A stretch of DNA of 32,000 nt, taken from Deinococcus sp. LM3. Its GTDB lineage: Bacteria; Deinococcota; Deinococci; Deinococcales; Deinococcaceae. Positions 5,451 through 23,394 of this stretch are shown here, in pieces (the first letter of the stretch is position 1; the number at the start of each line of letters is the position of its first letter). The DNA lies in the NCBI RefSeq assembly GCF_002017875.1, contig NZ_MUFV01000005.1, positions 75,437 through 107,436 on the forward strand, written 5' to 3'. The notes below the pieces were generated by a model that made no database searches, was not told where the DNA came from, and saw nothing but the letters and a program-made list of their open reading frames with translations. The translations under genes and the position numbers were made by a program.

Positions 5451-5771
5451 GGTCTTGGGTGCTGCTTAAGGAAAAGATTGAGTTGACACTAATATTCCTT
5501 AGTGTGAAATTTATCTCCTATGGACGGTCAGTTCGCTGCTGAGCCGGCACCCATCCACCGGACTGGAAACGCCTCACCTGAGATGGGCTCCCTTCCGTCC
5601 CAGTCAGGTTCGCAGTCCGCTCCACGTCCGAATTGCAGGTCCCACGGGGCCGGCTACAGCGTAAGCAGGATCTCAGCAATCCGTACCCCCATCAGGGGTT
5701 TTCCCGAACGAGTGGCATGAGCACTTCACCGGGTGCCGGTCCTCTCTCACCACATTGCCTCCAGATCTTCC

Positions 5772-5802
5772 ATTCGCTGTTCGCGATTCGCGAACAGCGA
5801 AT
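5772..5802. promoter_or_regulatory. 31-bp perfect palindrome (15+1+15), candidate operator of the TA-like pair
   Basis: attcgctgttcgcga t tcgcgaacagcgaat, ending 11 nt before the ATG at 5814. Confidence 0.55.
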
Positions 5803-5813
5803 ATACTGAGACC

Positions 5814-8490: not shown

Positions 8491-8739
8491 CTACCCGTTT
8501 CCGCGTAACAGATCTTGCATGGATAGCTTAAGTGCAGTAGTCAGTCGCAGGAGAGTTGTGAACTGCGGGTCGTACTGCGCACTTTCGATTTTGCTGATGT
8601 GGCTTCGCGAGAGGTTGGCACGGGCGGCAAGTTCTTCCTGACTGTATCCAGAGTTTTGACGTGCCTGCCGGATCTGAGCCGCCATCCACTCCAACGCCTG
8701 TTGTTCATGGGCTTGGTAGGTTCGAGGTGTGCGGGCCAT
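8491..8739 (-). CDS. XRE-family helix-turn-helix regulator (controller-protein-like)
   Basis: 82 aa. YSQEELAARANLSRSHISKIESAQYDPQFTTLLRLTTAL is a classic Cro/C1 HTH_3 pattern. It is divergent from the TGT-like operon. Confidence 0.85.
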   Translation of the reverse strand: MARTPRTYQAHEQQALEWMAAQIRQARQNSGYSQEELAARANLSRSHISKIESAQYDPQFTTLLRLTTALKLSMQDLLRGNG

Positions 8740-8771
8740 TCCACCTACAGTGCAAGAGTTGATCTGACTGT

Positions 8772-8807
8772 GCCACCTATTATAATATGCATATTATAAT
8801 AGGTGGC
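8772..8807. promoter_or_regulatory. Perfect 36-bp AT-rich palindrome carrying TATAAT boxes on both strands: divergent promoter/operator
   Basis: gccacctattataatatg|catattataataggtggc, with all 18 pairs checked base by base. TATAAT at 8781..8786 and 8795..8800, and their mirror images on the minus strand. It is centred in the 119-bp gap between the XRE start (8739) and the GTG at 8859. Confidence 0.7.
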
Positions 8808-8858
8808 GTGCAGGTGTGACGAATGTTTGGGTAGATCAGGACCAGTCAGGAGGGAAGA

Positions 8859-9827
8859 GTGAAGTATTTTTGCGGCTACACCCCATGGGACTTCCCAATC
8901 GCGCAACTTGACCCCTACGCTCACATGCTCGTCTCGCCGACCACCTATTCGCCAACGTACAGGTACGACTTCCACCCGCCACAGGAGGTCATGCTCGATA
9001 GTGGCGCCTTCCATCACGGTCGGCGTAACACGCATCGTCACCGCCTGCGCACCTTGCATGATCAACTCAAAATTGCCGAACAGTACCCAGGGAGCACGGT
9101 CACTCTTGCCCACAGTGATGTGCTCTTGCGGCCAGAGGTTGATCCACGCCGGAGTATTCATGAAACCCTCGTGAATGCCGAGTGGTTCATGCGGCAGGAC
9201 CTGCCGAGTGGGTACCGACGAATGACTGTCGCTCAAGCACGCACTCCTGACGAGATGTACCTCGTGGTTTCTCAACTGGCTCAATTTGAGCCTGAATTGA
9301 TCGGTATAGGTGGTCTCGCGAATCTCCACCGTACCCACCGCAAACTCCTTCCATTTATGCTCGAAGGAGCGGTGGAGGCCGCCGGCGACCTTCCCCTCCA
9401 CGCACTCGGCGTCACTGCACAGCACATTCTCCAACGGCTACGCATCAACAACATCTACAGTTGCGACTCTGCCACTGCCATCTGGTGCGCCATCTATGGC
9501 AGCGTTGTCTATGCCCGTCCATACCGCCGTTACCGTCTGATCAGCGAGAAATCCAGCAGGCCCGAATCTCCACAGGAAACAGGCTACTACAGCAGTCTGA
9601 CTCGCCCTCTCGCCTGCACATGTCCAGTGTGCCGAACAGTTCCAGAAGAGTTACTAGGCAGTGACTCGCGCGCTAAATACGCCCGTTACATTCACAACTA
9701 CTATCACATCAAGCTTGAGATCGAGGGAGAGGGAGAATGGCAGGCAGTTTACTCATCGGCCGAATACCAGTCCGTTATGACGACCTTTCTCTCCTCCAGG
9801 AGCTCATCGAACAGCACCCAGGCATAA
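8859..9827 (+). CDS. TGT-fold (DpdA-like) transglycosylase, paralog 1
   Basis: GTG start with an AGGAGG SD 5 nt upstream. Motifs MLDSGAFHHG, IGIGGLANL, LHALGVT and YSCDSATA correspond to the two catalytic Asp regions of tRNA-guanine transglycosylases. A Zn-type CTCPVCR...HNYYH motif is also present. The last 91 nt overlap the next gene in another frame. Confidence 0.7.
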   Translation: MKYFCGYTPWDFPIAQLDPYAHMLVSPTTYSPTYRYDFHPPQEVMLDSGAFHHGRRNTHRHRLRTLHDQLKIAEQYPGSTVTLAHSDVLLRPEVDPRRSIHETLVNAEWFMRQDLPSGYRRMTVAQARTPDEMYLVVSQLAQFEPELIGIGGLANLHRTHRKLLPFMLEGAVEAAGDLPLHALGVTAQHILQRLRINNIYSCDSATAIWCAIYGSVVYARPYRRYRLISEKSSRPESPQETGYYSSLTRPLACTCPVCRTVPEELLGSDSRAKYARYIHNYYHIKLEIEGEGEWQAVYSSAEYQSVMTTFLSSRSSSNSTQA

Positions 9828-10525
9828 CGTTTAAAGCACTCAAGGAGACTTTAACGCCACACTGGACGTACTACCTGTCAAGCTCGGCCAGTCTGCTCAA
9901 AGAAACCCTGAGCTTTGGCACAACACTGGGCCTCTTCGCTTCAAGCGCTGAACGGTCATGGGATGACCGCACCTTCAGCACTCCCTATGAATCGAAGCAT
10001 CTTCGTGCCACGATTCTTCATCTCCTGTCCGCGCAATCAGACACCTCCCAGCGGGCCTTTCGTGGAGTTCATGACGAATTGATCGACCAGGGGCATGTCC
10101 ACACGGATATTTCCAGCATCCTCGAATGCATGGAGACTGGGCCCTATGGTCAGGTCTTCCGCTGGAACGATACGAAAGTCAACTTCTGGAGTCAGTTCAT
10201 GCACGACCTGGGTCTGGTCATCCGGCTTCCACCGGAACGGGTGGTCCTGAGTCCGACCAGCTCTCTCCTTCAAGAACTGCTGCCTGCACAGGGCGGCCCC
10301 GTTCGCCCGTTGTTGGAAACGTGGCACCGCGATTATTACGCCGTCTTCACGCGTCTAGGCGAGGTTCACGAAGGACTTGCACGGGCTCTCCTGCGACTGG
10401 AACAACAAGGACACATGACATTCACGTACGCGAGTGACGCCGTCGGCAGTGTGCTGTTATGCGGCCGTCGCATCAGTCACTGGACTCACGCCGCCGCCGG
10501 AGGCACCCATGTGGATTCCCTTTGA
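9737..10525 (+). CDS. Hypothetical protein (262 aa)
   Basis: ATG at 9737 preceded by a purine-rich SD (gagggagagggaga). No motif recognised. Lies in an operon between the TGT-like gene and the P-loop gene. Confidence 0.6.
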   Translation: MAGSLLIGRIPVRYDDLSLLQELIEQHPGITFKALKETLTPHWTYYLSSSASLLKETLSFGTTLGLFASSAERSWDDRTFSTPYESKHLRATILHLLSAQSDTSQRAFRGVHDELIDQGHVHTDISSILECMETGPYGQVFRWNDTKVNFWSQFMHDLGLVIRLPPERVVLSPTSSLLQELLPAQGGPVRPLLETWHRDYYAVFTRLGEVHEGLARALLRLEQQGHMTFTYASDAVGSVLLCGRRISHWTHAAAGGTHVDSL

Positions 10526-13418
10526 TCCTGCCGACGTTGCTCAGGTCTTCACCACCGAATCCCGTCAGAAGCACGAGCGAATCTTCACGCTAACACACAC
10601 AAGCATGAACCGAATTCTCGTCTCGCACAACCGCGTCGGTCTTTCCAATGGCCAGTTTGTCGGTGAGCATGCAGTACTCGATCTGATTCAACAGTCTGCT
10701 CCGCTGGATAGCAATCGCGTCTGGTTCATCGTGGGAGAAACAGGCAGTGGCAAGTCTGAACTCTGCCAGTGGTTGGAGTACCAGTTGCGTGAACGGCACC
10801 TACCCCTGCACATCTCCAGGCGGCAAGCAAATCTCACCGGCATTCTCGATGTGCTGCACACCCATTTACCGTCCGGCCTTCAGGGGCAGACGACTGACCT
10901 GCCGCAGGACGTGTTGACGGATCACCTTCGCCTGCACCTCATGCTACGCGCCCACCGGGAAGGCCGCGGCCTGGGGTACGTCGAGCAGTTGCTGCCCTTT
11001 CTCCCTGACCTCGCCCGGCGGCTCTATCAACCGCTGGCTTCGTTTGAATTGCCACCCCACCTGCCTCCTGCACCCGCAGATGTTCCTTTCACGGCCTGGT
11101 TGTTCAGCGCCGTTCGCGAAGTCTTGGGTCTCCAGTCACTCGAACCCACCCTGCGTGCACTGGCCGAACATACCGCCCAACTCGGGAAACGTCCGGTCCT
11201 TTTGCTGGAAGACATCACCACTCTCGGCTTCTTACGTGACGATCTCCTCGACTACATTTTTGATCTCTCCGCTCCAGGGTTCGACGCGGTCATCGGGCTG
11301 ACCAGCGGTTTTGAAGATACCCACCTTCACCGCGACGGAGACCTTTCAGAGATGGCGTATGTCCGTGACCGTCTCAGTGCCCGGTTCCAGTTATCGCACA
11401 AGAGTGGAGAAACGTTTTTCCTGAACCAACCTCAAGATCTCCATGATCTGGTCCGGCGCTACCTGGGCTGTCTGCCGGCTCAGTCGGGCGGATCTTCGCC
11501 CGCGTTTTCAGGCCTGTACCCGTTTTCACCCACCATGCTCGACCGTCTATACACACATCTGGTCGAAAGTGGTAACCCGCGTCAAACGCCACGGAATCTA
11601 CTCGACGCTGTTATCAAACCTTCCCTGTGTCTGAATGAACCACCCCACGTCACTCTGTTCCGGGCACACCCTTATTTGCGCACGCCCAGCGTTACCTTTT
11701 ACCATCAAGACATTCCACCGGAACTCCAAGGACTGCTGTACTGGCATGGTGAGGTCCGGGACGGAAGTGTTCACGTTCCGGACGATGTGGCGCAGGCATT
11801 CGGTTATGATTCTGTTCCTCCGGTTCCCTGTTTTCCCAATCCCACAGGATCAACGTGGCTCTTCGGAAAGACGGCGGATGATCCAACAGATCTGTGGAAA
11901 GAAGCCATCCGTGAACTGCAAGCCTGGCAATCTGCGGGTGCTCCCTTTCCCAAACGCCAGTATCTCAAGCGCGGGATTGAACGACTTCTCCGGGCCCTGC
12001 TGGATCCGCGCCCTATCCAGCATCCCCGTCTGAATGCGCTCAGCGCAGATCCTTTAGAGTACACGCGCGGAGGCGATCACCTCCCTATTTACTTACCCGA
12101 GAGCGGTGACGTGCGTCCTGAGCATTGGCCGAGCCTGCACTTCCCCCGCACTCTTCCGCCCCAACTGCTTGAAGAATGCCTCACCTATGCGTTCTCCGCC
12201 AATCGCCATGTAGAATGCTTTGCCGATCTGGGACATACGCGACAGGTTCTCGAAGATGTTGTCTCCGATTTCCGGAGTGACGTGCGCGATCAGATCGGAC
12301 GTCTCACCGGACAATCATGGTCGAGGATGGTCTTTGGTCTCTGGTGGCTCTGTCAACATGTCTGCCAGGGCCATCCCCTGCAGATGAACGGCGGGGATGG
12401 CAAACGCGCCCTTTTGCAGTATGATCTCGCCCCAAAAGAACTGCGAACGGCCTGGTCGGATGAGCGTCGCCACCGCGTGTTACACCGCACTCACCAGGAA
12501 CTTCGGGCGAATCGTGATCACTACCGGGGCTTATTTGTGAGCCTCTTCCATCACAGAGACGACCTGATGGACCCCGTGCTCTATGAACAGGAGTGCCGAC
12601 AGTTCGATCCCAGTCTGTTCATGGATACCCTGGCCACGCTTTCACTCTCACGCCTCTCGGCGGCGCCCTACCGGCAACGGGGCAGTAAGCTCTCGTTGAC
12701 GCAACTCCTCCAACCCGCCGTGGAATACGCCGCAGCCCTCAAGGCATACGTCCTTCAAGACGAAGACCGTCTCCAGTGGACGGCCGTGGAACGCAGCCTT
12801 GAACACGCCATTCAACAGGCAGATGAATTGGACCTAGCCTGCAGACGTATTGAGCGTCTGGCTCATCAGGCCGGATGGACCATCACTGCCCCGCCGACCA
12901 GTCACACGTGGCGGTCCGGCGAGTGGGCAGGTGTCCTGCGTCAGTCCCAGCAGGCCAGTCGCGACTTCAAGAACCATCCTCCGATTGTGCAGATCACGGT
13001 GGCGCGCACGTGGCGGGAACGCCTGGAACAAATAGAACCGATCCAGTGGATGAACGCTGTTAAGGTGTTCCGAGACAGCGCTGAACGCATTCACCAGGAG
13101 AGGCACCCCGTTGAACAACTGCCCACACGACAGACGCATCATTCGAGTGACGTTCACCTGAATGATCTGGAAGATCTCGCCAGTACGCTGGCGGCGGCCG
13201 CGGACGCCGCCGACACCTTGCCACAGCATGTTGCCGAGCAGACGGCCCGTTCGATCCGTCGCCTGCAGGCGACGCAGACTCAGAGCATTGAAGCCGTCCT
13301 GGGCCGTCATGGCATTCACGCACCCGTGCAGATGGCGCGGCAGTCACGGGAGGCCAGTCTGGTTCTTCTGAGTGACCTGCTGGAATGCATGGTGGACCTC
13401 ATGGACTGCCCACCGTGA
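10509..13418 (+). CDS. Large P-loop NTPase (about 970 aa) of unknown family
   Basis: ATG at 10509 with a GGAGG SD 5 nt upstream (the track ORF starts earlier, at 10434). Walker A is WFIVGETGSGKSELC and Walker B-like is PVLLLEDITTLG. It has a long helical C-terminal region. It overlaps the upstream gene by 17 nt. Confidence 0.7.
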   Translation: MWIPFDPADVAQVFTTESRQKHERIFTLTHTSMNRILVSHNRVGLSNGQFVGEHAVLDLIQQSAPLDSNRVWFIVGETGSGKSELCQWLEYQLRERHLPLHISRRQANLTGILDVLHTHLPSGLQGQTTDLPQDVLTDHLRLHLMLRAHREGRGLGYVEQLLPFLPDLARRLYQPLASFELPPHLPPAPADVPFTAWLFSAVREVLGLQSLEPTLRALAEHTAQLGKRPVLLLEDITTLGFLRDDLLDYIFDLSAPGFDAVIGLTSGFEDTHLHRDGDLSEMAYVRDRLSARFQLSHKSGETFFLNQPQDLHDLVRRYLGCLPAQSGGSSPAFSGLYPFSPTMLDRLYTHLVESGNPRQTPRNLLDAVIKPSLCLNEPPHVTLFRAHPYLRTPSVTFYHQDIPPELQGLLYWHGEVRDGSVHVPDDVAQAFGYDSVPPVPCFPNPTGSTWLFGKTADDPTDLWKEAIRELQAWQSAGAPFPKRQYLKRGIERLLRALLDPRPIQHPRLNALSADPLEYTRGGDHLPIYLPESGDVRPEHWPSLHFPRTLPPQLLEECLTYAFSANRHVECFADLGHTRQVLEDVVSDFRSDVRDQIGRLTGQSWSRMVFGLWWLCQHVCQGHPLQMNGGDGKRALLQYDLAPKELRTAWSDERRHRVLHRTHQELRANRDHYRGLFVSLFHHRDDLMDPVLYEQECRQFDPSLFMDTLATLSLSRLSAAPYRQRGSKLSLTQLLQPAVEYAAALKAYVLQDEDRLQWTAVERSLEHAIQQADELDLACRRIERLAHQAGWTITAPPTSHTWRSGEWAGVLRQSQQASRDFKNHPPIVQITVARTWRERLEQIEPIQWMNAVKVFRDSAERIHQERHPVEQLPTRQTHHSSDVHLNDLEDLASTLAAAADAADTLPQHVAEQTARSIRRLQATQTQSIEAVLGRHGIHAPVQMARQSREASLVLLSDLLECMVDLMDCPP

Positions 13419-13459
13419 GCAACACCAGGGATGGCTCAGTACGTCGAAGCTAACATTGC

Positions 13460-13486
13460 GAGGTTCCGGCAAAGCGCCGGAACCTC
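13460..13486. terminator. Hairpin between convergent operons (candidate terminator)
   Basis: gaggttccggc-aaagc-gccggaacctc, a perfect 11-bp stem. No clear U-tract on either side. A second, weaker GC hairpin with a gtttat tail follows at about 13514-13535. Confidence 0.35.
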
Positions 13487-13559
13487 TCCATTCCCGCTCC
13501 AACGTACTTTTTCTGCTGCGCGCTCCGCGCGGTTTATCTACAAGATAAACGCAGTGTAC

Positions 13560-15545
13560 TTAATTCAGGAGGCGTTCCATGGGCCGCTCCAGGTTGTCCC
13601 GTCGTTCCCGGGCAGCCTCATAGCGGTCTCGTTTAACGAGGAGGCTTTCATCGCCGGCAAGGATACGGGCCTGCACGTCCTGGAGTGCCCGGAGGTACAT
13701 GTTGATGTTATGAACGGCGCGGCCCATGTTCGCTTCGTTGCCACCGTTGTAGGGACGGCCACTCGGGTCGCGTAATGTTCCACCCTGTGCCCGGGTGTCC
13801 CACCCTTCGGCGCGCATGGCAGAGCACGCAGGACAGTGGCAGGGCGGTAACTCATCGCTTCCAGGAACGTTCTCAACAATCCGGTACTTTTTGAGGAGGT
13901 TGGGGTCTTCCGGGACGTACTGAAGGAAGGATCCGGCCGTGAAGGCAGACATATACATGCTGGAACCGTCAAAGGAGTCAACACCCAGATGTGTGAGCGT
14001 GGCAGCCCATTTGATACTGGAAACCCCCAGGACGTGAATATACAGATCCGGCACCTGGGCCCGGTACTGTAAGGCGTCTTCAACGCACCGGTAAACAAAG
14101 TACGGATCACGACTTGATTTCAGGGCGAGACTGCCCAGGGCGATGTGCCGGTACCCGAGATCCAGGTAATGCTCCATCATTTCGTGCCGTTGCTCGAAGG
14201 ACCCGTGGGTGACGGCCATGAGACGGTGCGCACCGGCGAGGGGCTTCATGGCTCTTGCGAACTGATAGGAGATTTCAATTTTTTCGCGCGCAACCTGCGG
14301 ACTGTCGAGACCGTCAAGGATCATCATATCCGGGGAGACGATAATGTCACGTCCTTCCCGGGCCCCTGCATCCTCAAACAGTTTCATGGTGCCCTCTGGC
14401 GTCAGGGGTCCGTTGCGTTTTTTCAGGATGGGGTATGGCTCTGCCTTGTAACTCCAGGCGCCGCAATCGTAGATATTGCCCTCATCAGTTTGTGGCAAGG
14501 GATCACTGTTAGGGTTGTGATACGCCAGAGAGGTCAAGTACCCCCTGGGATCCGTTTCAATAAAGTTCCAGATGCGTTCCATCTTGGGGGTTGGCAACGG
14601 CGCCCCTGCGTGATCCTGTGTCAGTTTGAGCTTGTCACGGTTGTTAATCACCACTGTGAATCGTGCCCGCGGAGGCACCGCGAGTTCATGCTGGGCTTTC
14701 GGGTAAAACGCTTCACTGCTCAAGTTCAGAGGGTTGAAGCCCAGTCCGGTGCGGTGAATGCTGGGACCTGTGGTGACCGGCATGGGAGGCACTGAAGCTT
14801 CTACCTCAGCCTCTGACATGAGCGTTGGTGCCGTGCGGGCCGCCTGCCAGGTTTCCAGATAGGTGATGGCGCTCTGAGGATCGGCGTGCCAATCGTGCAG
14901 CACTTCTGGATGTTCTGCGACGGCCCGCGCGAGTTGATGAAACAAGAAGCCTTTCAGGCCAACCATACCGTATCCGAAGCGACGTGCATCCTTATTGACC
15001 AGAGGGAGAACAGCCTGCTTGGCGGCATGCTCGGGAAGAATGGCGGCACTCCCGCCACTGGCCAGAAAAATGAAGCTTTGATCTGGACGACTCTGCAGTG
15101 GGAGAAGGGCCGACTTCAGATAATTCTCGCCGAGCAGGAAAATGACAATATCATAAGACTTTATTCTTGCATTCAGGGCCTCGTGGATGCCCAGCTGCTT
15201 ACTCCAGTCTAAGACTTCCCGGCTTTTTAATTCGTTGAAAGACGTTTCGTAGGGGGCAATAAATTTATACTGATCGATTAAGCCATAACCGGCTGAGATG
15301 ATTTCCAGCCGACTGACAACACCTTTGATCTTCGAGAGAATATCAAAAGCTCGGGAGACCTGTTGGTGCTGCGCACCCGTGTATAAGCGCTTGGCTGAAG
15401 TTCGGTACTCCGCCAACTCTTGCTCACGAGCCCGAAGGTGATCTCCTCCCTTGCGGAAATCCTCTATCACAAGTTGATTTGGCGGTTTGTATAGCTTTGC
15501 GCCCGTACAAGAACTGATGACTAACAAGCTTGGGTACTTGGGCAT
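13560..15545 (-). CDS. Fusion protein: N-terminal YaaA/DUF328- or DUF6884-like domain plus C-terminal TGT-fold (DpdA-like) domain, paralog 2
   Basis: 661 aa. The N-terminal pattern is VISSCTGAKL...AKRLYTGAQH...IISAGYGLIDQYKFIAPYETSF. The C-terminal motifs are IYDCGAWS, IALGSLALK, IHVLGVSS, GVDSFDGSSMY and CHCPACS...HNINMY. The ATG at 15545 lies 2 nt after the queC stop (15548). Confidence 0.7.
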   Translation of the reverse strand: MPKYPSLLVISSCTGAKLYKPPNQLVIEDFRKGGDHLRAREQELAEYRTSAKRLYTGAQHQQVSRAFDILSKIKGVVSRLEIISAGYGLIDQYKFIAPYETSFNELKSREVLDWSKQLGIHEALNARIKSYDIVIFLLGENYLKSALLPLQSRPDQSFIFLASGGSAAILPEHAAKQAVLPLVNKDARRFGYGMVGLKGFLFHQLARAVAEHPEVLHDWHADPQSAITYLETWQAARTAPTLMSEAEVEASVPPMPVTTGPSIHRTGLGFNPLNLSSEAFYPKAQHELAVPPRARFTVVINNRDKLKLTQDHAGAPLPTPKMERIWNFIETDPRGYLTSLAYHNPNSDPLPQTDEGNIYDCGAWSYKAEPYPILKKRNGPLTPEGTMKLFEDAGAREGRDIIVSPDMMILDGLDSPQVAREKIEISYQFARAMKPLAGAHRLMAVTHGSFEQRHEMMEHYLDLGYRHIALGSLALKSSRDPYFVYRCVEDALQYRAQVPDLYIHVLGVSSIKWAATLTHLGVDSFDGSSMYMSAFTAGSFLQYVPEDPNLLKKYRIVENVPGSDELPPCHCPACSAMRAEGWDTRAQGGTLRDPSGRPYNGGNEANMGRAVHNINMYLRALQDVQARILAGDESLLVKRDRYEAARERRDNLERPMERLLN

Positions 15546-15547
15546 AC

Positions 15548-16252
15548 TTACTCTTGTATACCGTCCTGCGCCTGGGCGTAGCGGGTGGCGAGGTCCGGGC
15601 GGCCCGCCTCGATCAGCGCCTTATCGCGGATGCGGCATGAATCGCACACCCCGCACGGCTCCTCGCCCCCCTGGTAGCAACTCCAGGTCACGTCGATCGG
15701 CACGCCCACCGCCAGCGCCTCGCGCACGATGTCCGCCTTCGTCATCTCCGCCAGCGGCGCTGTCAGTACCGCCCCGCGCCCCTCCAGGCCCGCCTTCGTC
15801 GCCAGGTCCGCCAGCGTCTGGTACGCCGAGAGATACTCCGGCCGGCAGTCCGGGTACCCGCTGTAATCCACCGCGTTGATCCCCAGGAACACCCGCTCCG
15901 CGTCGATCGCCTCGGCCAGACTCAGACCCACGGCAATAAAGACCGTGTTGCGCCCCGGCACGTACGTCGGCGGAATCACGCCGTCCTCCGTCCCGTCCGT
16001 CGGCACGGCCATCGACTCGTCCGTCAGGGCACTCCCCCCGAACGACCCGATATTGATGTCGATCACCCGGTGCACGGCTCCGAAGTGCGCCGCGACCGTC
16101 GCTGCCCGCTCCAGTTCCACCGTGTGCCGCTGCCCGTACCGGAACGACAACGCCGTACACGCATACCCGTCCCGCGTCGCCATGCCCAGCACCGTGCTCG
16201 AATCCAGCCCGCCCGACAGCAGCACCACTGCCCTCTTATTCTGATTTGTCAT
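15548..16252 (-). CDS. queC: 7-cyano-7-deazaguanine (preQ0) synthase QueC
   Basis: [14 protein letters not shown]-loop motif, YGQRH, and a C-terminal Zn cluster [18 protein letters not shown]. Confidence 0.95.
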
Positions 16253-16291
16253 GTTGATTCTCCGAGGTTAATAGTGAATGGAAGGCTCTGA

Positions 16292-16316
16292 AGGCCTCTC
16301 CCTTCGGGAGAGGCCT
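16292..16316 (-). other. Perfect 10-bp stem-loop in the queE-queC intergenic spacer
   Basis: aggcctctcc-cttcg-ggagaggcct. No U-tract follows on either strand. Confidence 0.4.
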
Positions 16317-16377
16317 GTTCTACACCTGAACAACTAAGTCCTGCCTGAGAGATCACTCTCACTGCACCAACAGCCTT

Positions 16378-17070
16378 TCAGTACCCAAGTTCCGCGTTCC
16401 CACCGAGGGGGATGAGGCGCTTGTCACTGTGCGCGTCGAGGTCGTCGGCGCGGTACAGCTTGTGCATCTGGTACCCGGCCCGCAGGCGCGGGTTCTCCTT
16501 CACCGCCTGCGTGATGCCGTTCAGCACAGTCAGATCCCGCTCGCGGGCCCGGCTCCACTCCGGGTGCAGCCAGATCACCGCCCCGTCCGGCAGGCCGGTC
16601 AGGGTGTCCAGGCCCGCCTGAATATCACCGGGTTCGTGGACGATGATCTTCACCTCGTCCGCGAGTACCACGACTTCCGGCAGCGGGGGCTGCCCGAACG
16701 GTTTGGGCGACAGCGTCACCCAGTCCAGTTCACCCCGCAGCGGTGCGATCCCGCTCGTCTCGATGTGCACCCGGCGGCCCAGCGCGTGCAGGGCGTCCGT
16801 CAGGGGCGCGAGGTCGAACAGGATCGGCTCGCCCCCCGTGACCACCACCACCGCGCCCTCTGGACTCTCGGCCCGCACCACATCGGCCAGTTCATCGGCA
16901 CTCATGAGGGTCACGCCGTCCGGGCGGTAGTCGCGGTGCCACGTGCCGGCACTGTCGCACCAGGGGCAGGCCTGCGGGCAGCCGTACAGGCGGATGAAGT
17001 ACGCCGCGCGGCCCAGGTGAACCCCCTCGCCCTGCCAGGTGTAGAACCGCTCGTACACCGGGTACTTCAT
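16378..17070 (-). CDS. queE: 7-carboxy-7-deazaguanine synthase QueE (radical SAM)
   Basis: N-terminus YERFYTWQGEGVHLGRAAYFIRLYGCPQACPWCDS (CX14CX2C-type cluster motif). Typical QueE length (230 aa). Confidence 0.9.
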   Translation of the reverse strand: MKYPVYERFYTWQGEGVHLGRAAYFIRLYGCPQACPWCDSAGTWHRDYRPDGVTLMSADELADVVRAESPEGAVVVVTGGEPILFDLAPLTDALHALGRRVHIETSGIAPLRGELDWVTLSPKPFGQPPLPEVVVLADEVKIIVHEPGDIQAGLDTLTGLPDGAVIWLHPEWSRARERDLTVLNGITQAVKENPRLRAGYQMHKLYRADDLDAHSDKRLIPLGGNAELGY

Positions 17071-17211
17071 TGTTGCTCCGCTGGAATGGTTCGCCAGAAC
17101 CGTTCCAGTCGAGCGGATGTGAGAAGGAGCCCAGCGGATTCCGGGCGTGGAATTTGGACCTCGATGGGGTGCCGAGGTGCAAATGGAACAGACGGAATCC
17201 GGTTCACGCCC

Positions 17212-17622
17212 TCACTCCCAGTACTCGCAGGAGCTGTCGGGTGTCTCCCAGAGCGTCACGTGCAGGCGCAGGTCTGCGCCGTCGTCCCCGTCGGGCAGGT
17301 CGGCGCGCACGCGCTTCATGGTGTGGCGGTGAATGTACGCGGCGACGACCTCGGCGGTCGTGTCGTCCCCGAGTTCCGGGATGTCGTTCAGGTATGCGTG
17401 GTCCAGGCCGCCGGCGTCCACGTCCTTCTTCGCCCATTTGAGGGTCTTGAAGTCCGCGACCATGATGGCCCGCTTGACGTGCGCACTCGGGCGGAGTTTC
17501 TCACTGGTGAGTTCCAGCCGGACGCGGTACGTGTGCCCGTGCAGTCTCCCGCACGGCCCGTCGTAGCCGGTGATCACATGTGCCGAATCGAACGTGAACT
17601 CCGAACTCAGTTTCCAAGGCAT
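17212..17622 (-). CDS. queD: 6-carboxy-5,6,7,8-tetrahydropterin synthase QueD
   Basis: FTFDSAHVITGYDGPCGRLHGHTYRVRLEL, a PTPS-family His/Cys motif. 136 aa. Its start shares 1 nt with the yhhQ stop (TGATG). Confidence 0.9.
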   Translation of the reverse strand: MPWKLSSEFTFDSAHVITGYDGPCGRLHGHTYRVRLELTSEKLRPSAHVKRAIMVADFKTLKWAKKDVDAGGLDHAYLNDIPELGDDTTAEVVAAYIHRHTMKRVRADLPDGDDGADLRLHVTLWETPDSSCEYWE

Positions 17623-18257
17623 CAGCGGACTCCTGCGGGTGCGGTGGTGAGGGCGGGCTCCTGCGGCTCACTGACCTGGGTTCGCACCCAGCGAACCAGG
17701 GGAATAAGCAGAAGGCTGATCAGCATCTTCAGGATGATCTGCCCGAGCATCAGGTTCAGCAGGGGCGCGCCGGTCCCGGCAAAGGCCAGCGTGATGAACA
17801 CGATGGTATCCAGGGTGGTGCTCACGGCGTTCGACGCGATGACCTGCACGGTGACCCCACGGTGACGCAGACGCTCGAAGATCAGGGCGTCGAGGGCCGT
17901 GCTGATCAGGTACGCGGCCAGGCTCGCCAGGACCACGCGGACCGTGGAACCGAAGACCACCTGATAGGCGTCGTCCTGGAAGAATCCGGGTTTCGGAAGG
18001 GCATTGACGAGTAGACCGTAGGCGGCGAGCAGCGCGTTGGCGGCGAAACCGCCCCACAGGACCGCCTTGGCGGCCGTCCAGCCCCCCGCGGTGTGGATGG
18101 CGTCCCTAAGGGTGAAGGTCAGGGAGTACAGGAAGATCGCGCCGGGAAAGACCAGGGAGCCGAGCTGCACGAGGCGACCGGCGGTGACGTTACTGACGAG
18201 TTCCGCGCCGATGTAGACGGAGATCAGGATGGTCAGCAGGGTGGTGCGTTGAGTCAT
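17622..18257 (-). CDS. yhhQ: Queuosine-precursor transporter (YhhQ/DUF165, VUT family)
   Basis: 211-aa polytopic membrane protein. The pattern FPGAIFLYSLTFTLRDAIH is typical of YhhQ-type preQ0/preQ1 importers. Confidence 0.8.
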   Translation of the reverse strand: MTQRTTLLTILISVYIGAELVSNVTAGRLVQLGSLVFPGAIFLYSLTFTLRDAIHTAGGWTAAKAVLWGGFAANALLAAYGLLVNALPKPGFFQDDAYQVVFGSTVRVVLASLAAYLISTALDALIFERLRHRGVTVQVIASNAVSTTLDTIVFITLAFAGTGAPLLNLMLGQIILKMLISLLLIPLVRWVRTQVSEPQEPALTTAPAGVR

Positions 18258-18779
18258 GGGAAACCTTTCGGGTGAAGCGACTCCAGCGCGCGTGGGACGA
18301 TCCGGCCCGAATCGCCACGGGCCCCTCCAGCAGGAAGGGGAGTGACGAGAGGGCGGCGGATCCCAGGGGCCGGGAAGCCGGAGAGATCAGAGCAGCGTGA
18401 CGACGCGGCCGTGATGTTGATGTGCACACGTCAGTCGGGTGCCTGCCACCGTTCAACGGTGTGCAGGTCAGTCGGGGCTGACGTCGGGCGGAGCGTTCGT
18501 GGTCGCTCTAGCCGGTGGGTCCCTGAGGGGGGCAGCGCCCGGGCGCGAAACCGTCTCGTTTCGTGGCGGGGCGAGGTCCTGCGGGACCGTCAGGTGGGGC
18601 GCCGTGCGCCTCCCACCTGGAAGGAGGGGAGATCCAGGATACGCCGGAGTACTTGTTCATGGGAGCTCCTTGGGACCTGTGCGGCATTACAGGCCCGGGG
18701 GGTGGGCGCAGTCTGCGCCTGGCAGAGTCTTGCACATCCCTTCTGCCTGCGGGTAAGAACCCCCGGCAGGGTGAGGGGC

Positions 18780-19673
18780 TCACCGCTGCAAGGTGCGGGT
18801 GGTGAGCGTGCTGAAGCGGGCAGTGGGGAGTGGGAGGGACGCGCCGATGGCCGCCGCGAGGTTGCACAGGGCCAGGTGAACGCGTTCGTGCGGGGTGAGG
18901 TGGGCGTGCCGGACCTGCGGGGCCGAGTAGAGACGGCCGTCCGCGGCGTACTTCACGTAGGAACTGGAATCCACGCTGTCCACGCCGAGCCGCGAGACCC
19001 GCCCGACGTGGTCCGGGTGGCCGATCCCGAAGGCGTGGATGGGCAGGTCACCAGCTGCGGCGCGGACAGCCCGGATCACGTCGTCCACCATGTCTGGTTG
19101 GGACATGCGTAGGACGAGCCCCCCGATGGCGACTCCTTCGAATCCAGCCTCCCGGTACTCCTGCGCGAGCTCCGCGGCGGCCTGCGCGTCCCAGCCCTGC
19201 ACGACCCCGTACAGGGGCAGGTCGGTGCGGCGGCGGTTGTGCAGGGCCCACAGCGCGTTGGCGCGCGTCAGGGCGTGATAGCGCCGGGCGTCGCGGGTGG
19301 GCAGACCGGGGGGAATGAGCAGGTCCAGGGTGAAGCCGACGTCCGCGACGCGTTCCTGCAGTTCCAGGACGCTGCTGGGTGTTATGCGCCGACCCTGGCA
19401 GTCGATCACGCCGAGTCCCGCGCGGGTGCGGGTCACGGTGGCGGCCGTGAAGACACTGGCGAACCCGCCGGAGTCCACGAGCAACGGCACGCTCAGGTCC
19501 GGCGCTTCCCGCGCGTCTTGCAGGAAGAACGCGCTGACCATGACCGCGGGTGCGAGCCGGGGCAGGTAGGGGCGGATCAGGTCGTCGAGGGGGTACTTCT
19601 CGCCGAAGGTCGTGACGGGCACGAACGCGGGGAAGTGCAGGGGGCCTTTGCGAGTGTTCAGGGTGCGGGTCAT
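18780..19673 (-). CDS. dpdA: TGT-fold DNA/RNA transglycosylase, DpdA-like, paralog 3 (no Zn cysteine cluster)
   Basis: 297 aa. Motifs LLVDSGGFASV, GVAIGGLV, IHAFGIGHPD and GVDSVDSSSY. It contains only two Cys residues, so there is no CxCxxC motif. It heads the que/yhhQ gene string. Confidence 0.65.
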   Translation of the reverse strand: MTRTLNTRKGPLHFPAFVPVTTFGEKYPLDDLIRPYLPRLAPAVMVSAFFLQDAREAPDLSVPLLVDSGGFASVFTAATVTRTRAGLGVIDCQGRRITPSSVLELQERVADVGFTLDLLIPPGLPTRDARRYHALTRANALWALHNRRRTDLPLYGVVQGWDAQAAAELAQEYREAGFEGVAIGGLVLRMSQPDMVDDVIRAVRAAAGDLPIHAFGIGHPDHVGRVSRLGVDSVDSSSYVKYAADGRLYSAPQVRHAHLTPHERVHLALCNLAAAIGASLPLPTARFSTLTTRTLQR

Positions 19674-20078
19674 GCGTTCATCCAGAGGTGCTCGAAGGAC
19701 CAGTCGGGGGACGGGTCGTGGTTCAGGGCGGTGAGGTCGGCGAGCGCACGGCTACCCTGACGCGGTCATTGCTCGTTCAGGCCAAAGAACGCCTCGCTGA
19801 TCCTCATAGACTGGTCCTGTTCACGGATGGTTTTCTGTCTTCTGACATCTTTCAGTTTTAAGCCGTATGCTGGCGAGTGCCGTCCCAGACGAATAAAATC
19901 CGTTCCATTTCTCTTTCCAGCTCAAAAAGCCGCACCCAGCCGACACATTTCATCCTGACCTGACCAGCCAGTGCACCCCAGTCGGGCCAAGAGGTCTCCT
20001 CTTGGTCCGACGCTGTTTGGTCAAGGTGCTCAACATGGCAGAGGAAGAAGCAGGCCACACTCAGGCAGAGATAGCGTA

Positions 20079-20212
20079 ATACGGACTCCGATTGAATGGG
20101 CTGCAAAGCCCGTTCAATCCGAGCGAAGCGAGTGGGAGCAAAACGGGTTCCGGACGTGGAGCCGGCAATCCGGTGAAGTCCCGGATTGTCGGCGAAACAA
20201 ACGGAATCCGTA
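20079..20212 (-). repeat. 134-bp MITE-like small noncoding repeat, copy B (inverted relative to copy A)
   Basis: Its reverse complement aligns end to end with 1976..2109, with about 9 substitutions. Confidence 0.75.
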
Positions 20213-20362
20213 TCATTCGTCGTTGGGCTACCGAACACCGGATGAGTGGGCCAAGGAGGCCAGTGGCCGGCCTGCCGTCCCCATGTGCGGGCAGGACACC
20301 GCACATGCGGCCGTCATCCCGACCACTGGGTGAAAAAGGGAAGACGACTGTGTACGCTCGTT

Positions 20363-20741
20363 CTTGAATCGAGTCTCTACTCGAAAGTGTCCAAGCTTTG
20401 GGGTCAGGCCATACCCCTGAATAGAGGTCATTCGGAAATTGAGTGACAGGGGGCCGCACAGATTGGCGGCCCCCTCTGCCGATGCGGCTGAGCGATGCCC
20501 AATGGGCCGTCCTTGCACTTCTCATTCCACCCACCACCACCCGCGGTCGGCCACGCCCGTTCTGATCGCGAGGTCCTCGAAGGTATCCTCTGGGTTCTTC
20601 GCACGGGAGCGCAATGGGCTGCCCTGCCAAACCCCACCCAAGACCACCTTCCACGACCGGTTCCAGGAGTGGGTGCTGATGATGAACCCTGCTCTTGAGC
20701 CGGGTCTCTACTCGAAACTGTCCAAACTTTGGGGCCAGCCC
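20363..20741 (+). mobile_element. Degraded IS5-family (IS427-like) element remnant bounded by two direct 48-bp repeats
   Basis: 48-mers at 20363..20410 and 20694..20741 (cttgaNNcgNgtctctactcgaaaNtgtccaaNctttggggNcagNcc, about 85% identical) flank a frameshifted transposase N-terminal fragment. Confidence 0.55.
20482..20690 (+). pseudogene. IS5/IS427-group transposase OrfA N-terminal fragment (DUF4096-like), frameshifted and truncated
   Basis: Conserved segments are spread over three frames: MRLSDAQWAVLALLIPPTTTRGRPRP, then DREVLEGILWVLRTGAQWAALP, then PPKTTFHDRFQEWV. No catalytic DDE region follows. Confidence 0.6.
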
Positions 20742-20743
20742 AA

Positions 20744-21334
20744 TTAGACAGGTGGATGTAAAAGTCGCCGGGCCCGATCCATGGCTTGAACCAAAGGGTC
20801 TTGGTCACCGTGGCGCCGAAGCCACGGACCGGTTGGTCCGTGCGCGCCTTTCAATGCCTGAAGCCACAGAGTGCCGAGATAGTGCACAAGGACATGATCC
20901 AGATCCTCTGAAGGCGGTGCGGCGCTTATGAGCGAAGCAGATAGGCCTGAAGACTGATCCACCGGAGGCATAAATTCTTGCTCTGCGTCGTGCAGTAGAG
21001 TAAGACCTTGGTCTACAGCAGTTCCACGTTTCTCTGGAACTTCACCATGAGGCGGCAAGTGCACTTCCTGGACCCCCTGGGCGCTACGGTCTTCATACAG
21101 TCGGCTCAGCAGTTTGAGCGCGTCACGCACATCTACAGGTTTGGTACTGCACTGCACCACGGTCCAGGGCCCCAGTTGCCGTTCCTCAACTCCCGCCGCC
21201 AAGACGAAGGTCAGGCCCAGAGTGACTTCAGGGTAGGCCACAGGCAACGTCCCCACGTCGGCGTGTGTGAAGTTGTACTCCGCTTCAGGCAGGGAGGCCA
21301 TCTGCAACCGGCCAGCAAGTTCAAGAGCGTTCAT
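20744..21334 (-). CDS. Hypothetical protein (196 aa), last gene of the defence-like operon
   Basis: Its ATG overlaps the stop of the upstream helicase gene (ATGA at 21331-21334). No motif recognised. Its stop abuts the IS-remnant repeat. Confidence 0.55.
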   Translation of the reverse strand: MNALELAGRLQMASLPEAEYNFTHADVGTLPVAYPEVTLGLTFVLAAGVEERQLGPWTVVQCSTKPVDVRDALKLLSRLYEDRSAQGVQEVHLPPHGEVPEKRGTAVDQGLTLLHDAEQEFMPPVDQSSGLSASLISAAPPSEDLDHVLVHYLGTLWLQALKGAHGPTGPWLRRHGDQDPLVQAMDRARRLLHPPV

Positions 21335-23394
21335 AGCCCTTCCCGGATATCAACGCCACTGAGTTCTCGTAGTAACGGGGTCGCCTGTCCCTCTGTAGCG
21401 AGGAGGTACAACAACTCACCGCTACGGGTCATACCAACGTAGAAACGCATCCGCTCGCGTTCCATGAGAATGTCTTGCTCCTCACGCTCAGTTTCCGACC
21501 CCAAGGCGCCAAGGTGCTCAGCGTCTAAACCAACCAGCATGACCACAGGAAATTCCAAGCCTTTAGCAGTATGAATCGTCATCACTTTGACGCTTTCGCG
21601 CAGAACGTCCAGATCCTCCAGGACTGGATCCCAGTGGTCAGTGGGGATACCTTGCTTGGACAGGGCGTACGCGTATTCTTGGGCGAGCCCTTCCGTAGTG
21701 GCGATCACAGCAATATCACGCAAGCGTAAGAGGTTTTCTTCGCGAAATCGCGTGATTTCCTCAATGACGAAGCGTTTGATCTGGTGCTCCTCAACGAAGC
21801 GCATTAATATGGGACGTGGGCCACTGCGCTTAACTGACGCCATATCTATTAACTCACCGTGTTCCTTGAGATGCACATTTCGGGAGGCCAGATCAGCGGC
21901 GGTACGCACCACTTCGCGGGTATTGCGGTAATTGATTTTCAGCGCATACGAACGCCCCCGGACATCGAGGCCTACCTGCTTCCATGAAAACCCACGCGAG
22001 TACAAGCTCTGCGCGGCGTCTCCTAACACCAGGACGGTTTTGTGCTCAGTGCCTTGGCCCCGTGTGAGACGCTGCAACACCCGCAGTTCCAAGGGCGTGA
22101 GATCTTGCGCCTCGTCAACAATGACGTCGTCTACCACTTCGAGTTCGGGATGGTCAAGCAGGAGGCGGTACAGGCGGGTGACCGCGTCCCCCCAGTCCAT
22201 CAGGCCGCGTGCCTGCAAGTGAGCGTTGTAGGCACTTAGTACTTCCCAGACCACAGCGCGGGACAGTGGACTGAGTGCCTGCTTGCGCCCGTACCGAGGC
22301 GCTTGACGGTAAGCATCCATGTCCGGAAGCCCGAAGCCTTTTATCACTCGCTGAATTTCAGCGTAGAAGAACTCTGGAGCGCGCGCGAGCACCGCGGAGT
22401 GCCGCTGAGTTCTCACCTCATTGATCGCCTGCCGAATGAACTGCAGCGCCTGGTCGCGGTCCACGAGAGGCTGCTGGACTCCTGCCGCGTCCAGCATGCG
22501 CAGAGCCCATTGCCGGTAATCCTCAATGCGGAGGGTGGCTGGCAAGGTACCAGTCACTTCTTGCACCAGACTTCGGGTGACGCGTTGCAGTACGGGATTG
22601 TAAGTAATGAACAGTACCTGCCGTCCTGCCTGTGCGAGCCGGACAGCGCGGTGAATGCCTACGGTCGTCTTTCCACTGCCGGCCACACCTTTAAGCAGTG
22701 TGGCTCCAGTATGAATTCGGTTCACATGCTGTAGTTGCTCCTCGGCGAGCTCCAATAGAAGGTCCTGGATGCTGCCACGGGTGTACGCCTCCAGTTGCTC
22801 CAAAGACGCACGTTTGAATACACGGAAGGGATCCGCTAGGGGCTCGGCCGGGTCCGTCGCGAGCGCCAGAATCCACTCTTGGGTTTGTGCGGGCAGTCCG
22901 GGAAGTTTCAGGGCATCATCCAGGGTAGGCGCATCACGTAATGCGCGGGCTAATAGCGCGGGCGCTCCCAACAGCCGCAATTGATGCACAGTAAAGGCGC
23001 GCAGGGGAAAATCCGCGTCGCTTGGAGGATGGTTCCATGTGGTGGGCACCTGGAAGTCTGCCGTTTGTGGTGTGGCTGTGGCCTGCGGTTCAAGTTCCCA
23101 ACTCAGAAGGTCCTGGGTTCCAATATCCCGGGCGGTCAGTCGGTCGAAAACACTGTGAGGCACCACCCGCAGCAGCATGGGTTCACGGTTGCGTCCCCAC
23201 TGGAAGAGCATGCGCCAGTTGTCATTCACCCGGCAATACCAGGCGTCCATCAATTCCAGGCGGCGCACCTGCAGGCCGGTGGCCTGCGGATGCGTCAGAA
23301 GGGTTTTCACCGTACTGATGATGGCCGGCTGCATCGGCAACGCCGCGTTATGTTTCAGATCATCCAGGAAACGGGGGCTCACAAGCATCGTCAT
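21331..23394 (-). CDS. UvrD/Rep-type SF1 helicase with an N-terminal RelE/ParE-like domain
   Basis: Helicase motifs LLKGVAGSGKTTVG (I), VIVDEAQDL (II), KINYRNTREV, MTIHTAKGLEFPVVML and FYVGMTRSGELLYL. The first ~85 aa (...LELMDAWYCRVNDNWRMLFQWGRNREPMLLRVVPHSVF) follow the RelE/ParE toxin-fold pattern. Confidence 0.8.
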   Translation of the reverse strand: MTMLVSPRFLDDLKHNAALPMQPAIISTVKTLLTHPQATGLQVRRLELMDAWYCRVNDNWRMLFQWGRNREPMLLRVVPHSVFDRLTARDIGTQDLLSWELEPQATATPQTADFQVPTTWNHPPSDADFPLRAFTVHQLRLLGAPALLARALRDAPTLDDALKLPGLPAQTQEWILALATDPAEPLADPFRVFKRASLEQLEAYTRGSIQDLLLELAEEQLQHVNRIHTGATLLKGVAGSGKTTVGIHRAVRLAQAGRQVLFITYNPVLQRVTRSLVQEVTGTLPATLRIEDYRQWALRMLDAAGVQQPLVDRDQALQFIRQAINEVRTQRHSAVLARAPEFFYAEIQRVIKGFGLPDMDAYRQAPRYGRKQALSPLSRAVVWEVLSAYNAHLQARGLMDWGDAVTRLYRLLLDHPELEVVDDVIVDEAQDLTPLELRVLQRLTRGQGTEHKTVLVLGDAAQSLYSRGFSWKQVGLDVRGRSYALKINYRNTREVVRTAADLASRNVHLKEHGELIDMASVKRSGPRPILMRFVEEHQIKRFVIEEITRFREENLLRLRDIAVIATTEGLAQEYAYALSKQGIPTDHWDPVLEDLDVLRESVKVMTIHTAKGLEFPVVMLVGLDAEHLGALGSETEREEQDILMERERMRFYVGMTRSGELLYLLATEGQATPLLRELSGVDIREGL

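Follow-up and report, generated by a model that had tools for sequence, protein, structure and literature searches.

The window analysed here is a 32,000-nt stretch of a 162-kb contig of Deinococcus sp. LM3 and carries a Dpd island, a gene cluster for 7-deazaguanine modification of DNA, in which precursor genes, three genes of the tRNA-guanine transglycosylase (TGT) fold and part of a restriction operon stand together. A preliminary description of this DNA, made from its sequence alone, had proposed such a modification island, and both the Dpd profile matches and a syntenic plasmid of D. taeanensis bear it out. The gene map is based on the listing of open reading frames (ORFs) and on profile scans with NCBIfam, Pfam and PADLOC. 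OOV12012, OOV12015, WP_144012400 and WP_078305839 match proteins of the window exactly, and the nucleotide matches of the window in the plasmid collection are to Deinococcus plasmids only.

Genes of the island

Four precursor genes, all on the minus strand, are clustered with the three TGT-fold genes, and the profile scans confirmed the gene content first described at 8491-19673. QueC (15548..16252), the synthase of 7-cyano-7-deazaguanine (preQ0), matched TIGR00364 above its curated cutoff (E 2.5e-65) and Pfam at E 1e-70. It is followed by QueE (16378..17070), a radical S-adenosylmethionine 7-carboxy-7-deazaguanine synthase (TIGR04322 E 8e-29; Pfam Radical_SAM), by the 6-carboxy-tetrahydropterin synthase QueD (17212..17622; Pfam PTPS E 7e-29), and by a YhhQ-type queuosine-precursor transporter (17622..18257) that exceeded the curated cutoff of TIGR00697 (E 3e-23) and matched Pfam Vut_1 (E 2e-33). 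As had been noted before, scans of the ORFs of the window revealed no queF, queA, queG or folE, and no preQ1 riboswitch or other RNA element was matched by Rfam at the gathering threshold in the window. QueD, QueE and QueC would thus make preQ0 from 7,8-dihydroneopterin triphosphate, which the host would supply because no folE lies in the window, and YhhQ would import precursor.

The protein encoded at 13560..15545 (minus strand) has 661 amino acids (aa), arranged as a DUF6884 domain (residues 1-235), a linker and a TGT domain of the bacterial DpdA (bDpdA) type at about residues 355-620, and is by its profiles and motifs a DpdC-DpdA fusion. DUF6884 is the family that includes DpdC (GATOR-GC paper); CxxxK and LSAxxG are its two hallmark motifs (Pfam 2024 paper). 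In the LM3 protein they read C13-T-G-A-K17 and I-S84-A-G-Y-G, and neither varies within the fusion family. Pfam DUF6884 matched residues 46-153 (E 1e-9), three PADLOC DpdC models matched residues 7-109 (DpdC E 3e-6), and the C-terminal part was matched by Pfam TGT (E 3e-8) and by PADLOC DpdA. Iterated TGT and DpdC profiles drifted over the fusion, and domain-specific profiles and direct pairwise scores were used instead. With these, the C-terminal profile of the fusion family matched canonical bDpdA over nearly its full length (E 4.7e-109) and the N-terminal profile matched canonical DpdC (E 1.8e-8). DpdC, which had been thought missing, is therefore present as the N-terminus of this paralog, a DUF6884/DpdC domain with CxxxK and (L/I)SAxxG motifs.

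In a structural model of the fusion, residues 1-235 form a confident domain (predicted local distance difference test, pLDDT, about 85-96) that a disordered linker joins to a TGT barrel, and Foldseek retrieved TGT structures including DpdA 7ui4. A YaaA-like match, expected for the N-terminal domain, was absent from the top 50 fold hits, all of them TGTs, so that the DpdC assignment rests on the sequence profiles and motifs. Relatives of the fusion number 230 in reference genomes (Deinococcota, Cyanobacteria, Bacillota, Planctomycetota and others), and the 'DpdA' of Microcoleus sp. PCC 7113 (WP_015211588, 698 aa; shown in PMC5699537) is itself a DUF6884-TGT fusion. In three cyanobacterial loci among those fetched for comparison (L047, L052 and L080), the locus of the fusion is taken by two separate genes, first a solo DpdC (~250 aa) and then a solo bDpdA-like protein (~450 aa), which shows that fusion or fission occurred within one lineage. 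The gene directly after the fusion encodes X262 in 14 Firmicute loci (at 12077-12865 of L075, for example) and m294 in L085 (at 2922-3806) and 27 cyanobacterial loci. Neither has a Pfam match, and homology between X262 and m294 was rejected for want of a phmmer link.

To the left of the fusion, on the plus strand, lie three genes here called the trio. The first, TGT1 (8859..9827), encodes a short, zinc-containing TGT-fold transglycosylase that has neither a Pfam match nor a sequence match to any solved structure. Its matches to DpdA profiles are weak (E 1.5e-5 in NCBIfam and 1.9e-6 in PADLOC), and the family was for this reason aligned, with 12 members before modelling, and then modelled. With the AlphaFold model (pLDDT 79, predicted template modelling score 0.80), Foldseek returned only tRNA-guanine transglycosylases and the archaeal enzyme ArcTGT (probability 1.00, E 1.6e-8). 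D47, D87, Q126 and D203 together with the zinc ligands C253, C255, C258 and H279 are kept in 26 members from two phyla, and the protein has no domain beyond the barrel and the zinc site. The second gene (9737..10525) encodes DpdG', a diverged DpdG paralog (NCBIfam DpdG E 3.2e-9, below the curated cutoff; PADLOC DpdG E 8e-4), which stands between TGT1 and DpdH' wherever seen. The third (10434..13418, with the true start probably near 10509) encodes DpdH', a P-loop ATPase matching NCBIfam DpdH at E 7e-11. The profile of its family matched D. taeanensis DpdH (E 4e-13) in colinear N-terminal, middle and C-terminal blocks, which marks DpdH' as a full-length, diverged DpdH paralog, and all 20 members share the Walker A motif GETGSGKS (residue 101) without change. 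An XRE-type helix-turn-helix (HTH) regulator (8491..8739, minus strand; Pfam HTH_3 E 2e-15) is divergent from TGT1, a placement kept across all Deinococcus relatives, and promoter-like sites cluster at 8759-8822 between the two genes.

The restriction proteins lie at the other end of the window, all on the minus strand. They comprise the C-terminal part of DpdH (30277..32000; NCBIfam DpdH E 2.4e-46, profile positions 458-1011), a DpdI-like protein matched over its full length (29576..30280; NCBIfam DpdI E 3e-14), a 1778-aa DpdJ-like helicase of the YprA family (24202..29538; NCBIfam DpdJ E 4.8e-111) that aligns over 91% of its length, at 45% identity, with the helicase from the dpd plasmid of PCC 7113, and a DpdK-like phospholipase D-type (PLD) nuclease (23405..24205; NCBIfam DpdK E 1.3e-12, PADLOC DpdK E 4.5e-12). 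After them comes a UvrD-like superfamily 1 helicase (21331..23394; Pfam UvrD-helicase and UvrD_C; PADLOC NERD+UvrD E 2e-44), named '3'-5' exonuclease' in RefSeq and likewise found after the PLD gene in D. taeanensis. The DpdH frame is open at the edge of the window, and the restriction operon therefore runs on beyond it. In D. taeanensis, the complete plasmid p_TS293_6 has dpdE, dpdF, dpdG, dpdH, dpdI, dpdJ (split), the PLD gene and the UvrD-like gene, and in addition the fusion, the divergent HTH gene and the trio. The DpdG-DpdH pair of the restriction arm is distinct from DpdG'-DpdH'. Taken with DpdH-K in the window, this synteny identifies a Dpd restriction-modification island. The earlier view that nothing else of dpd was present does not hold, in the face of the DpdG- and DpdH-like genes at 9.7-13.4 kb and of DpdH, DpdI, DpdJ and DpdK at 23.4-32 kb. 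On the D. taeanensis plasmid queE is apparently frameshifted (L003, 7649-8337), with the fusion, the trio and the restriction arm intact.

The third TGT-fold gene (18780..19673, minus strand; Pfam TGT E 9e-24) encodes TGT3, a short TGT lacking the zinc subdomain, from a family of more than 1000 homologs of about 300 aa. TGT3 ends after the barrel, with no CxCxxC...H and no C-terminal tRNA-binding domain. It scored 57.8 against Tgt (cutoff 306.75) and 66.9 against ArcTGT (cutoff 350), and passed only the superfamily model tgt_general (79.4 against a cutoff of 47.6). In sequence it is closest to ArcTGT (E 2e-13), followed by bacterial Tgt (about 1e-10) and solved DpdA (5e-6). Members of its family usually lie just downstream of a gene for a ~800-aa DEAD/ResIII-HHH helicase, often with a second helicase gene after them, in islands that also hold HerA, UvrD, a PD-(D/E)xK nuclease and frequently the DUF6884-TGT fusion. 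A relative with 73% identity stands in the order helicase-TGT3-yhhQ-queD-queE-queC, which is the block of the window plus a helicase. No trace of either associated helicase was found in the window, and an insertion sequence (IS) remnant of the IS3 type occupies the position expected for the helicase. TGT3 is intact in LM3 and in strain 6YEL10, is reduced in D. taeanensis to a frameshifted remnant of residues 196-296 (L003, 5532-5811), lies in D. knuensis on another contig than the fusion, and was not found in the islands of D. hopiensis and D. rhizophilus. As its state in these sister islands suggests, TGT3 is on present comparison an accessory orphan of the helicase-associated TGT family, outside the island core. 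It may derive from a helicase-TGT3-yhhQ-queDEC module that lost its helicase beside the IS remnant.

For all three TGT-fold genes the profiles, the models of TGT1 and the fusion, and the alignment agree with the coordinates of the preliminary description. An active-site map was obtained by aligning the three paralogs with canonical bDpdA, the active site of which has been defined experimentally (PMC10164549), and with E. coli Tgt. The general acid/base Asp95 of bDpdA corresponds to D47 in TGT1, D360 in the fusion and D67 in TGT3, the gate Phe99 to F51, W364 and F71, the base-binding Asp130 to D87, D406 and D117, and the nucleophile Asp256 to D203, D526 and D235. At the base-recognition position, the fusion has a His (H447) like bDpdA (His181), and TGT1 and TGT3 have Gln (Q126 and Q159). 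The motif pairs quoted earlier for the three proteins (DSGAF/CDSA, DCGAW/FDGS and DSGGF/VDSS) are present and map to Asp95 and Asp256. These residues are invariant within each family (26 TGT1, 21 fusion and 120 TGT3 sequences). The zinc site CxCxxC...H occurs in TGT1 and in the fusion, where it is invariant in the family together with D360, D406 and D526, and it is missing from TGT3, the one paralog already described as lacking it. All three paralogs thus look like working enzymes. The short TGTs among the fetched loci fell into the families TGT1, TGT3 and bDpdA-like, with inter-family pairwise scores of only about 20-35 bits. The three genes are not equivalent copies and belong to separate families with different conserved partners. 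None of the three reached the equivalog cutoff of Tgt or ArcTGT, and in NCBIfam neither of these equivalog models matched TGT1 or the fusion at all. A tblastn search of TGT1 and TGT3 against 50,697 phage records gave no match, and at this level of comparison a phage origin of either was rejected, although a remote relation to DpdA1-DpdA4 may exist.

Absence of DpdB and conservation of the trio

The scans with DpdB, DndB, DGQHR and DpdD models of NCBIfam, Pfam and PADLOC matched no sizeable ORF of the window, and tblastn with Enterobacter DpdB and DpdD and cyanobacterial DndB likewise gave no match there. The tblastn searches, which also used Enterobacter DpdG and DpdH, missed genes that the profiles detected and are counted as supporting only. 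The RefSeq annotation of the complete 78.7-kb D. taeanensis plasmid with the same island contains neither DpdB nor DpdD. The absence of DpdB, claimed at the outset for the window, is thus borne out there and on this plasmid. DpdB is missing from about 8% of dpdA genomes, so that its absence alone is not new.

Fetched loci had their ORFs called and were then searched with the family profiles, and the co-occurrence sample comprised 79 reference-genome loci baited with the fusion, plus the window and related plasmid loci. Among the 79 loci, 16 held the trio only, 21 a DndB-type DpdB only and none both (Fisher p = 0.004, a value that overstates independence because the split tracks phylogeny). The 21 DndB loci are cyanobacterial, with a conserved 290-aa gene usually alongside. 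TGT1, DpdG' and DpdH' are adjacent in 17 fusion-baited loci of Deinococcota and Bacillota. The succession of TGT1, DpdG' (~250 aa) and DpdH' (~1000 aa) was met without exception in six Deinococcus and 14 Firmicute loci, the latter from Paenibacillus, Bacillus, Gorillibacterium and Fontibacillus. The gene string of Paenibacillus amylolyticus runs yhhQ, fusion, X (262 aa), TGT1, DpdG', DpdH', queC, queD, queE, dpdE, which places the trio inside the modification and precursor string, upstream of the restriction arm. A TGT1-baited search added three low-GC metagenome contigs in which TGT1 adjoins DpdG'-DpdH', divergently, beside a DpdK-like PLD gene. Since TGT1, DpdG' and DpdH' are kept together over at least three lineages and in two gene orders, the trio is taken as a unit.

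Proposed mechanism and competing explanations

In the only Dpd system reconstituted so far, preQ0 insertion by DpdA requires ATP hydrolysis by DpdB for a reason that is still open (PMC10164549). In LM3 we consider it reasonably probable that a Dpd restriction-modification island is built of separable modules, with the trio standing in for DpdB as an ATP-driven partner of modification. The fusion would exchange guanine in DNA for preQ0 and then hydrate it in place to 7-amido-7-deazaguanine (ADG). DpdC is known to convert the preQ0 deoxynucleoside in DNA (dPreQ0) into the corresponding ADG deoxynucleoside (dADG) without need of DpdA or DpdB, and because the DpdC domain is fused to DpdA, dADG would be the expected end product beyond dPreQ0 alone. 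Of the earlier statement that the pathway stops at preQ0, the part concerning the encoded precursor genes stands, whereas in DNA the DpdC domain predicts dADG. The trio, under its divergent XRE regulator, would replace DpdB as partner of the modification arm, with DpdH' providing the nucleoside triphosphate hydrolysis that canonical DpdA obtains from DpdB and TGT1 acting as a second insertase or, if a physical complex is formed, as a partner subunit of the fusion. The products of dpdH-I-J-K and the UvrD-like helicase would attack unmodified DNA, and dpdE-F-G are expected just outside the window.

It is also possible, although we advance it only tentatively, that the trio is a hitherto unrecognised ATP-driven base-exchange machine in which a BrxC-like P-loop ATPase and an adaptor load a dedicated transglycosylase onto DNA independently of DpdB, and which together with the fusion and TGT3 could write two or three distinct marks. 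If so, these marks would differ by sequence context or by inserted base on a single replicon.

Several observations weigh against the proposed modular mechanism. The fusion scored 43.8 bits against NCBIfam DpdA NF041059, the curated cutoff of which is 200, and the Dpd proteins of the window fall below the curated Dpd cutoffs of NCBIfam. The partition between trio and DndB is confounded by phylogeny (cyanobacteria versus Deinococcus and Firmicutes), and 36 loci, many of them truncated, have neither within 10 kb. A custom iterated DndB profile found 23 cyanobacterial DpdB proteins and failed its positive control on Enterobacter DpdB, so that its negative counts for the DndB type only and the negative for DpdB rests on the curated libraries and the RefSeq annotation. 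A DpdB gene may lie in another part of the LM3 genome. Phage DpdAs function without DpdB, and a substitute for the ATPase may thus be unneeded. The products of LM3-type islands in Deinococcus and Paenibacillus are predictions from gene content. Finally, DpdG and DpdH belong to the restriction arm of the canonical system, so that DpdG' and DpdH' may act in restriction too.

This last point makes a restriction or sensing role of the trio the main rival. A BrxC-like ATPase would scan DNA, and TGT1, rather than writing the self mark, would probe or excise guanine at unmodified foreign sites, leaving a covalent adduct, an abasic site or a signal for a nuclease. DpdG' and DpdH' are paralogs of proteins of the restriction arm in Salmonella (PMC10164549), DpdH/I have been termed BrxC-like, and glycosylase-based defence against deazaguanine DNA has precedent. 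The Deinococcus trio forms a separate operon with its own regulator, and on the low-GC metagenome contigs the trio stands beside the DpdK-like nuclease with no fusion in view. However, 14 Firmicute loci have the trio set between the writer gene and queCDE, DpdB and the trio never occur together, the restriction operon of the islands already supplies a complete canonical DpdG-DpdH pair, and TGT1 retains every element of the base-exchange active site, the base-binding Asp and the Gln among them. A restriction-side trio is rather unlikely in our judgement.

Modification of tRNA by TGT1 and/or TGT3, as part of a queuosine- or archaeosine-type pathway that would share the plasmid with Dpd, appears very improbable. 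TGT3 is nearer to ArcTGT and bacterial Tgt than to solved DpdA, its RefSeq name is 'tRNA-guanine transglycosylase', and the Gln at the base-recognition position of TGT1 and TGT3 is that of tRNA TGTs. Yet partners and missing domains speak against such a role: TGT3 falls far under the equivalog cutoffs of Tgt and ArcTGT, lacks the zinc subdomain and the C-terminal tRNA-binding domain, and has a family found in islands with the DEAD/ResIII helicase, HerA, UvrD, PD-(D/E)xK nuclease and DpdC-DpdA fusion. TGT1 adjoins DpdG' and DpdH' wherever seen, and the window holds no queA, queF or queG. Least probable of all are three redundant DpdA-like enzymes that only insert preQ0 with neither DpdB nor DpdC, a picture which three intact TGT-fold enzymes, the lack of DpdB and a precursor pathway ending at preQ0 would allow, but which conflicts with the conserved DpdC motifs fused to the second paralog, with the distinct partners of three families and the low pairwise scores of the paralogs (20-26 bits), and with the dispensability of TGT3 in sister islands.

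The conserved, cross-phylum DpdB-less variant is a natural test case for 7-deazaguanine insertion without DpdB, and a direct way into the question of why canonical DpdA needs DpdB. An ATPase pair resembling DpdG and DpdH accompanies its second transglycosylase throughout, and this may offer a first hint at what DpdG and DpdH do. GATOR-GC genome mining requires dpdA plus dpdB, and RefSeq labels the genes of such islands 'hypothetical', 'DUF6884' or 'tRNA-guanine transglycosylase'; mining rules of this kind and annotation at equivalog level are expected to miss the DpdB-less class.

Relation to known systems and replicon context

The canonical dpdA-K system was reportedly described in Salmonella enterica serovar Montevideo by Thiaville in 2016 and Yuan in 2018. 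The Dpd literature examined covers bDpdA, DpdA1-DpdA4, DpdB-dependent insertion, islands mined by dpdA plus dpdB, the halophile BRIGADE and the HerA/GNAT/TGT 'BRC'. Leaving aside the original papers of 2016 and 2018, this literature contains no mention of a second bacterial TGT tied to DpdG/DpdH paralogs or of Dpd islands in Deinococcus or Paenibacillus. The LM3 arrangement is absent from the same body of work, in keeping with the suggestion that the variant was possibly undescribed. The LM3 island is thus a variant of a known Dpd system, and the DpdB-less arrangement of fusion and trio is probably new.

Compared with the canonical dpdA-K system of Salmonella Montevideo (Gedara 2023, PMC10164549), LM3 has a TGT-family DNA transglycosylase whose active site and zinc site are the same, a DpdC-type domain, and homologs of DpdH, DpdI, DpdJ and DpdK whose order is likewise kept; many dpd islands also have preQ0 genes and YhhQ close by. 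It differs in carrying DpdC and DpdA in one polypeptide without DpdB or DpdD, in the extra TGT1-DpdG'-DpdH' operon with its own regulator, in the orphan TGT3, in the UvrD-like helicase after dpdK, and in Dpd proteins below the NCBIfam equivalog cutoffs. The plasmid pMIC7113.07 of Allocoleopsis (Microcoleus) sp. PCC 7113 (NC_019762; PMC5699537 Fig. 3) also has a DUF6884-TGT fusion and a PLD nuclease, and encodes the closest non-Deinococcus DpdJ to that of LM3 (45% identity). Unlike LM3, it has a DndB-type DpdB and two small conserved genes (m294 and m396) and lacks the trio, TGT3 and dpdE-I. The Paenibacillus and Bacillus islands (P. amylolyticus NZ_CP194938, L075) share with LM3 the fusion, the order of the trio, the lack of DpdB, and adjacent preQ0 genes and classical restriction arm. 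In contrast to LM3, their genes form one co-directional string with an extra 262-aa X between fusion and TGT1, they have neither the divergent XRE regulator nor TGT3, and their TGT1 is ~24% identical. The phage enzymes DpdA1-DpdA4 (PMC6884629, PMC10516641) are short, DpdB-free TGT-fold proteins as well, some without a complete zinc site, whereas TGT1 and TGT3, unmatched in phage records, stand in a bacterial defence island.

The helicase-associated TGT islands (Singulisphaera L088, L093, and the cyanobacteria L008, L009 and L013) hold members of the TGT3 family with 52-57% identity and often, as in LM3, the DUF6884-TGT fusion and a UvrD-type helicase. There TGT3 lies between two superfamily 2 helicase genes, with HerA and a PD-(D/E)xK nuclease, and LM3 has the Dpd restriction arm instead. 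In a recurrent island type of five loci (L088 from Singulisphaera, L093, L009, L013 and L068), the fusion is accompanied by helicase-TGT3-helicase, PD-(D/E)xK, UvrD, HerA (DUF87) and two genes without assigned function, with no DndB and no trio. These genes look like a third set of partners of the fusion, and no description of such an island was found. The DpdC-DpdA fusion is in this view a hub for three or more alternative partner modules. Two metagenome loci (L091 and L092) have a DEAD helicase-TGT3-yhhQ-queD-queE-queC block next to HerA, Fic and an HTH gene. The 16-18 kb contigs lack a DpdC-DpdA fusion, and TGT3 may be the sole transglycosylase in this context. In Nostoc sp. MS1 (L089, AP023442), a TGT3-like gene follows a DnaB helicase gene, near genes for a 274-aa PF23859 'DpdA', an MT-A70 methylase, a C5 methylase, DUF488 and a 2OG-Fe(II) oxygenase, and the region looks like a mobile element with several DNA-modification enzymes.

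The preliminary description had placed the island on a replicon with replication, partition and toxin-antitoxin functions. Partition was confirmed by ParA (7376-8047, plus strand); no profile confirmed the other two. A 540-aa ORF (2164-3786) without family match is kept in the sister strain and is a candidate Rep protein. Upstream of ParA and of a winged-HTH ORF (5733-6323), where GC content is low (0.51-0.53 at 3-5 kb), a 300-nt direct repeat (4682-4981 and 5067-5366, 93% identical) may mark an origin or iteron region.

The IS3-type remnant (19858..20654, no strand assigned) matches the IS3 transposase region of a D. aquaticus plasmid at 96%, and its ORF 19858-20304 has a paralog at 1881-2192. 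IS3-type fragments form a 134-nt inverted repeat, 95% complementary, with arms at 1976-2109 and 20079-20212, enclosing ~18 kb with the par region, the trio, the fusion, the que genes and TGT3. This bracket may represent a composite-transposon-like unit or serve as a substrate for inversion. Between the IS remnant and an ORF (20744..21334, minus strand) downstream of the UvrD-like gene lies a direct repeat of 50 nt (20362-20411 and 20693-20742; 86% identity). This ORF encodes a 196-aa protein with no assigned function, which has no family match in the profile scans and one homolog among the fetched loci. GC content steps from 0.55-0.59 at 9-16 kb to 0.64-0.68 at 16-20 kb. In a D. hopiensis metagenome-assembled genome (L006), YhhQ, QueD, QueE and QueC are 92-97% identical to those of the window, and the fusion and the trio 65-79%. 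The island is a mosaic, its que block recently exchanged.

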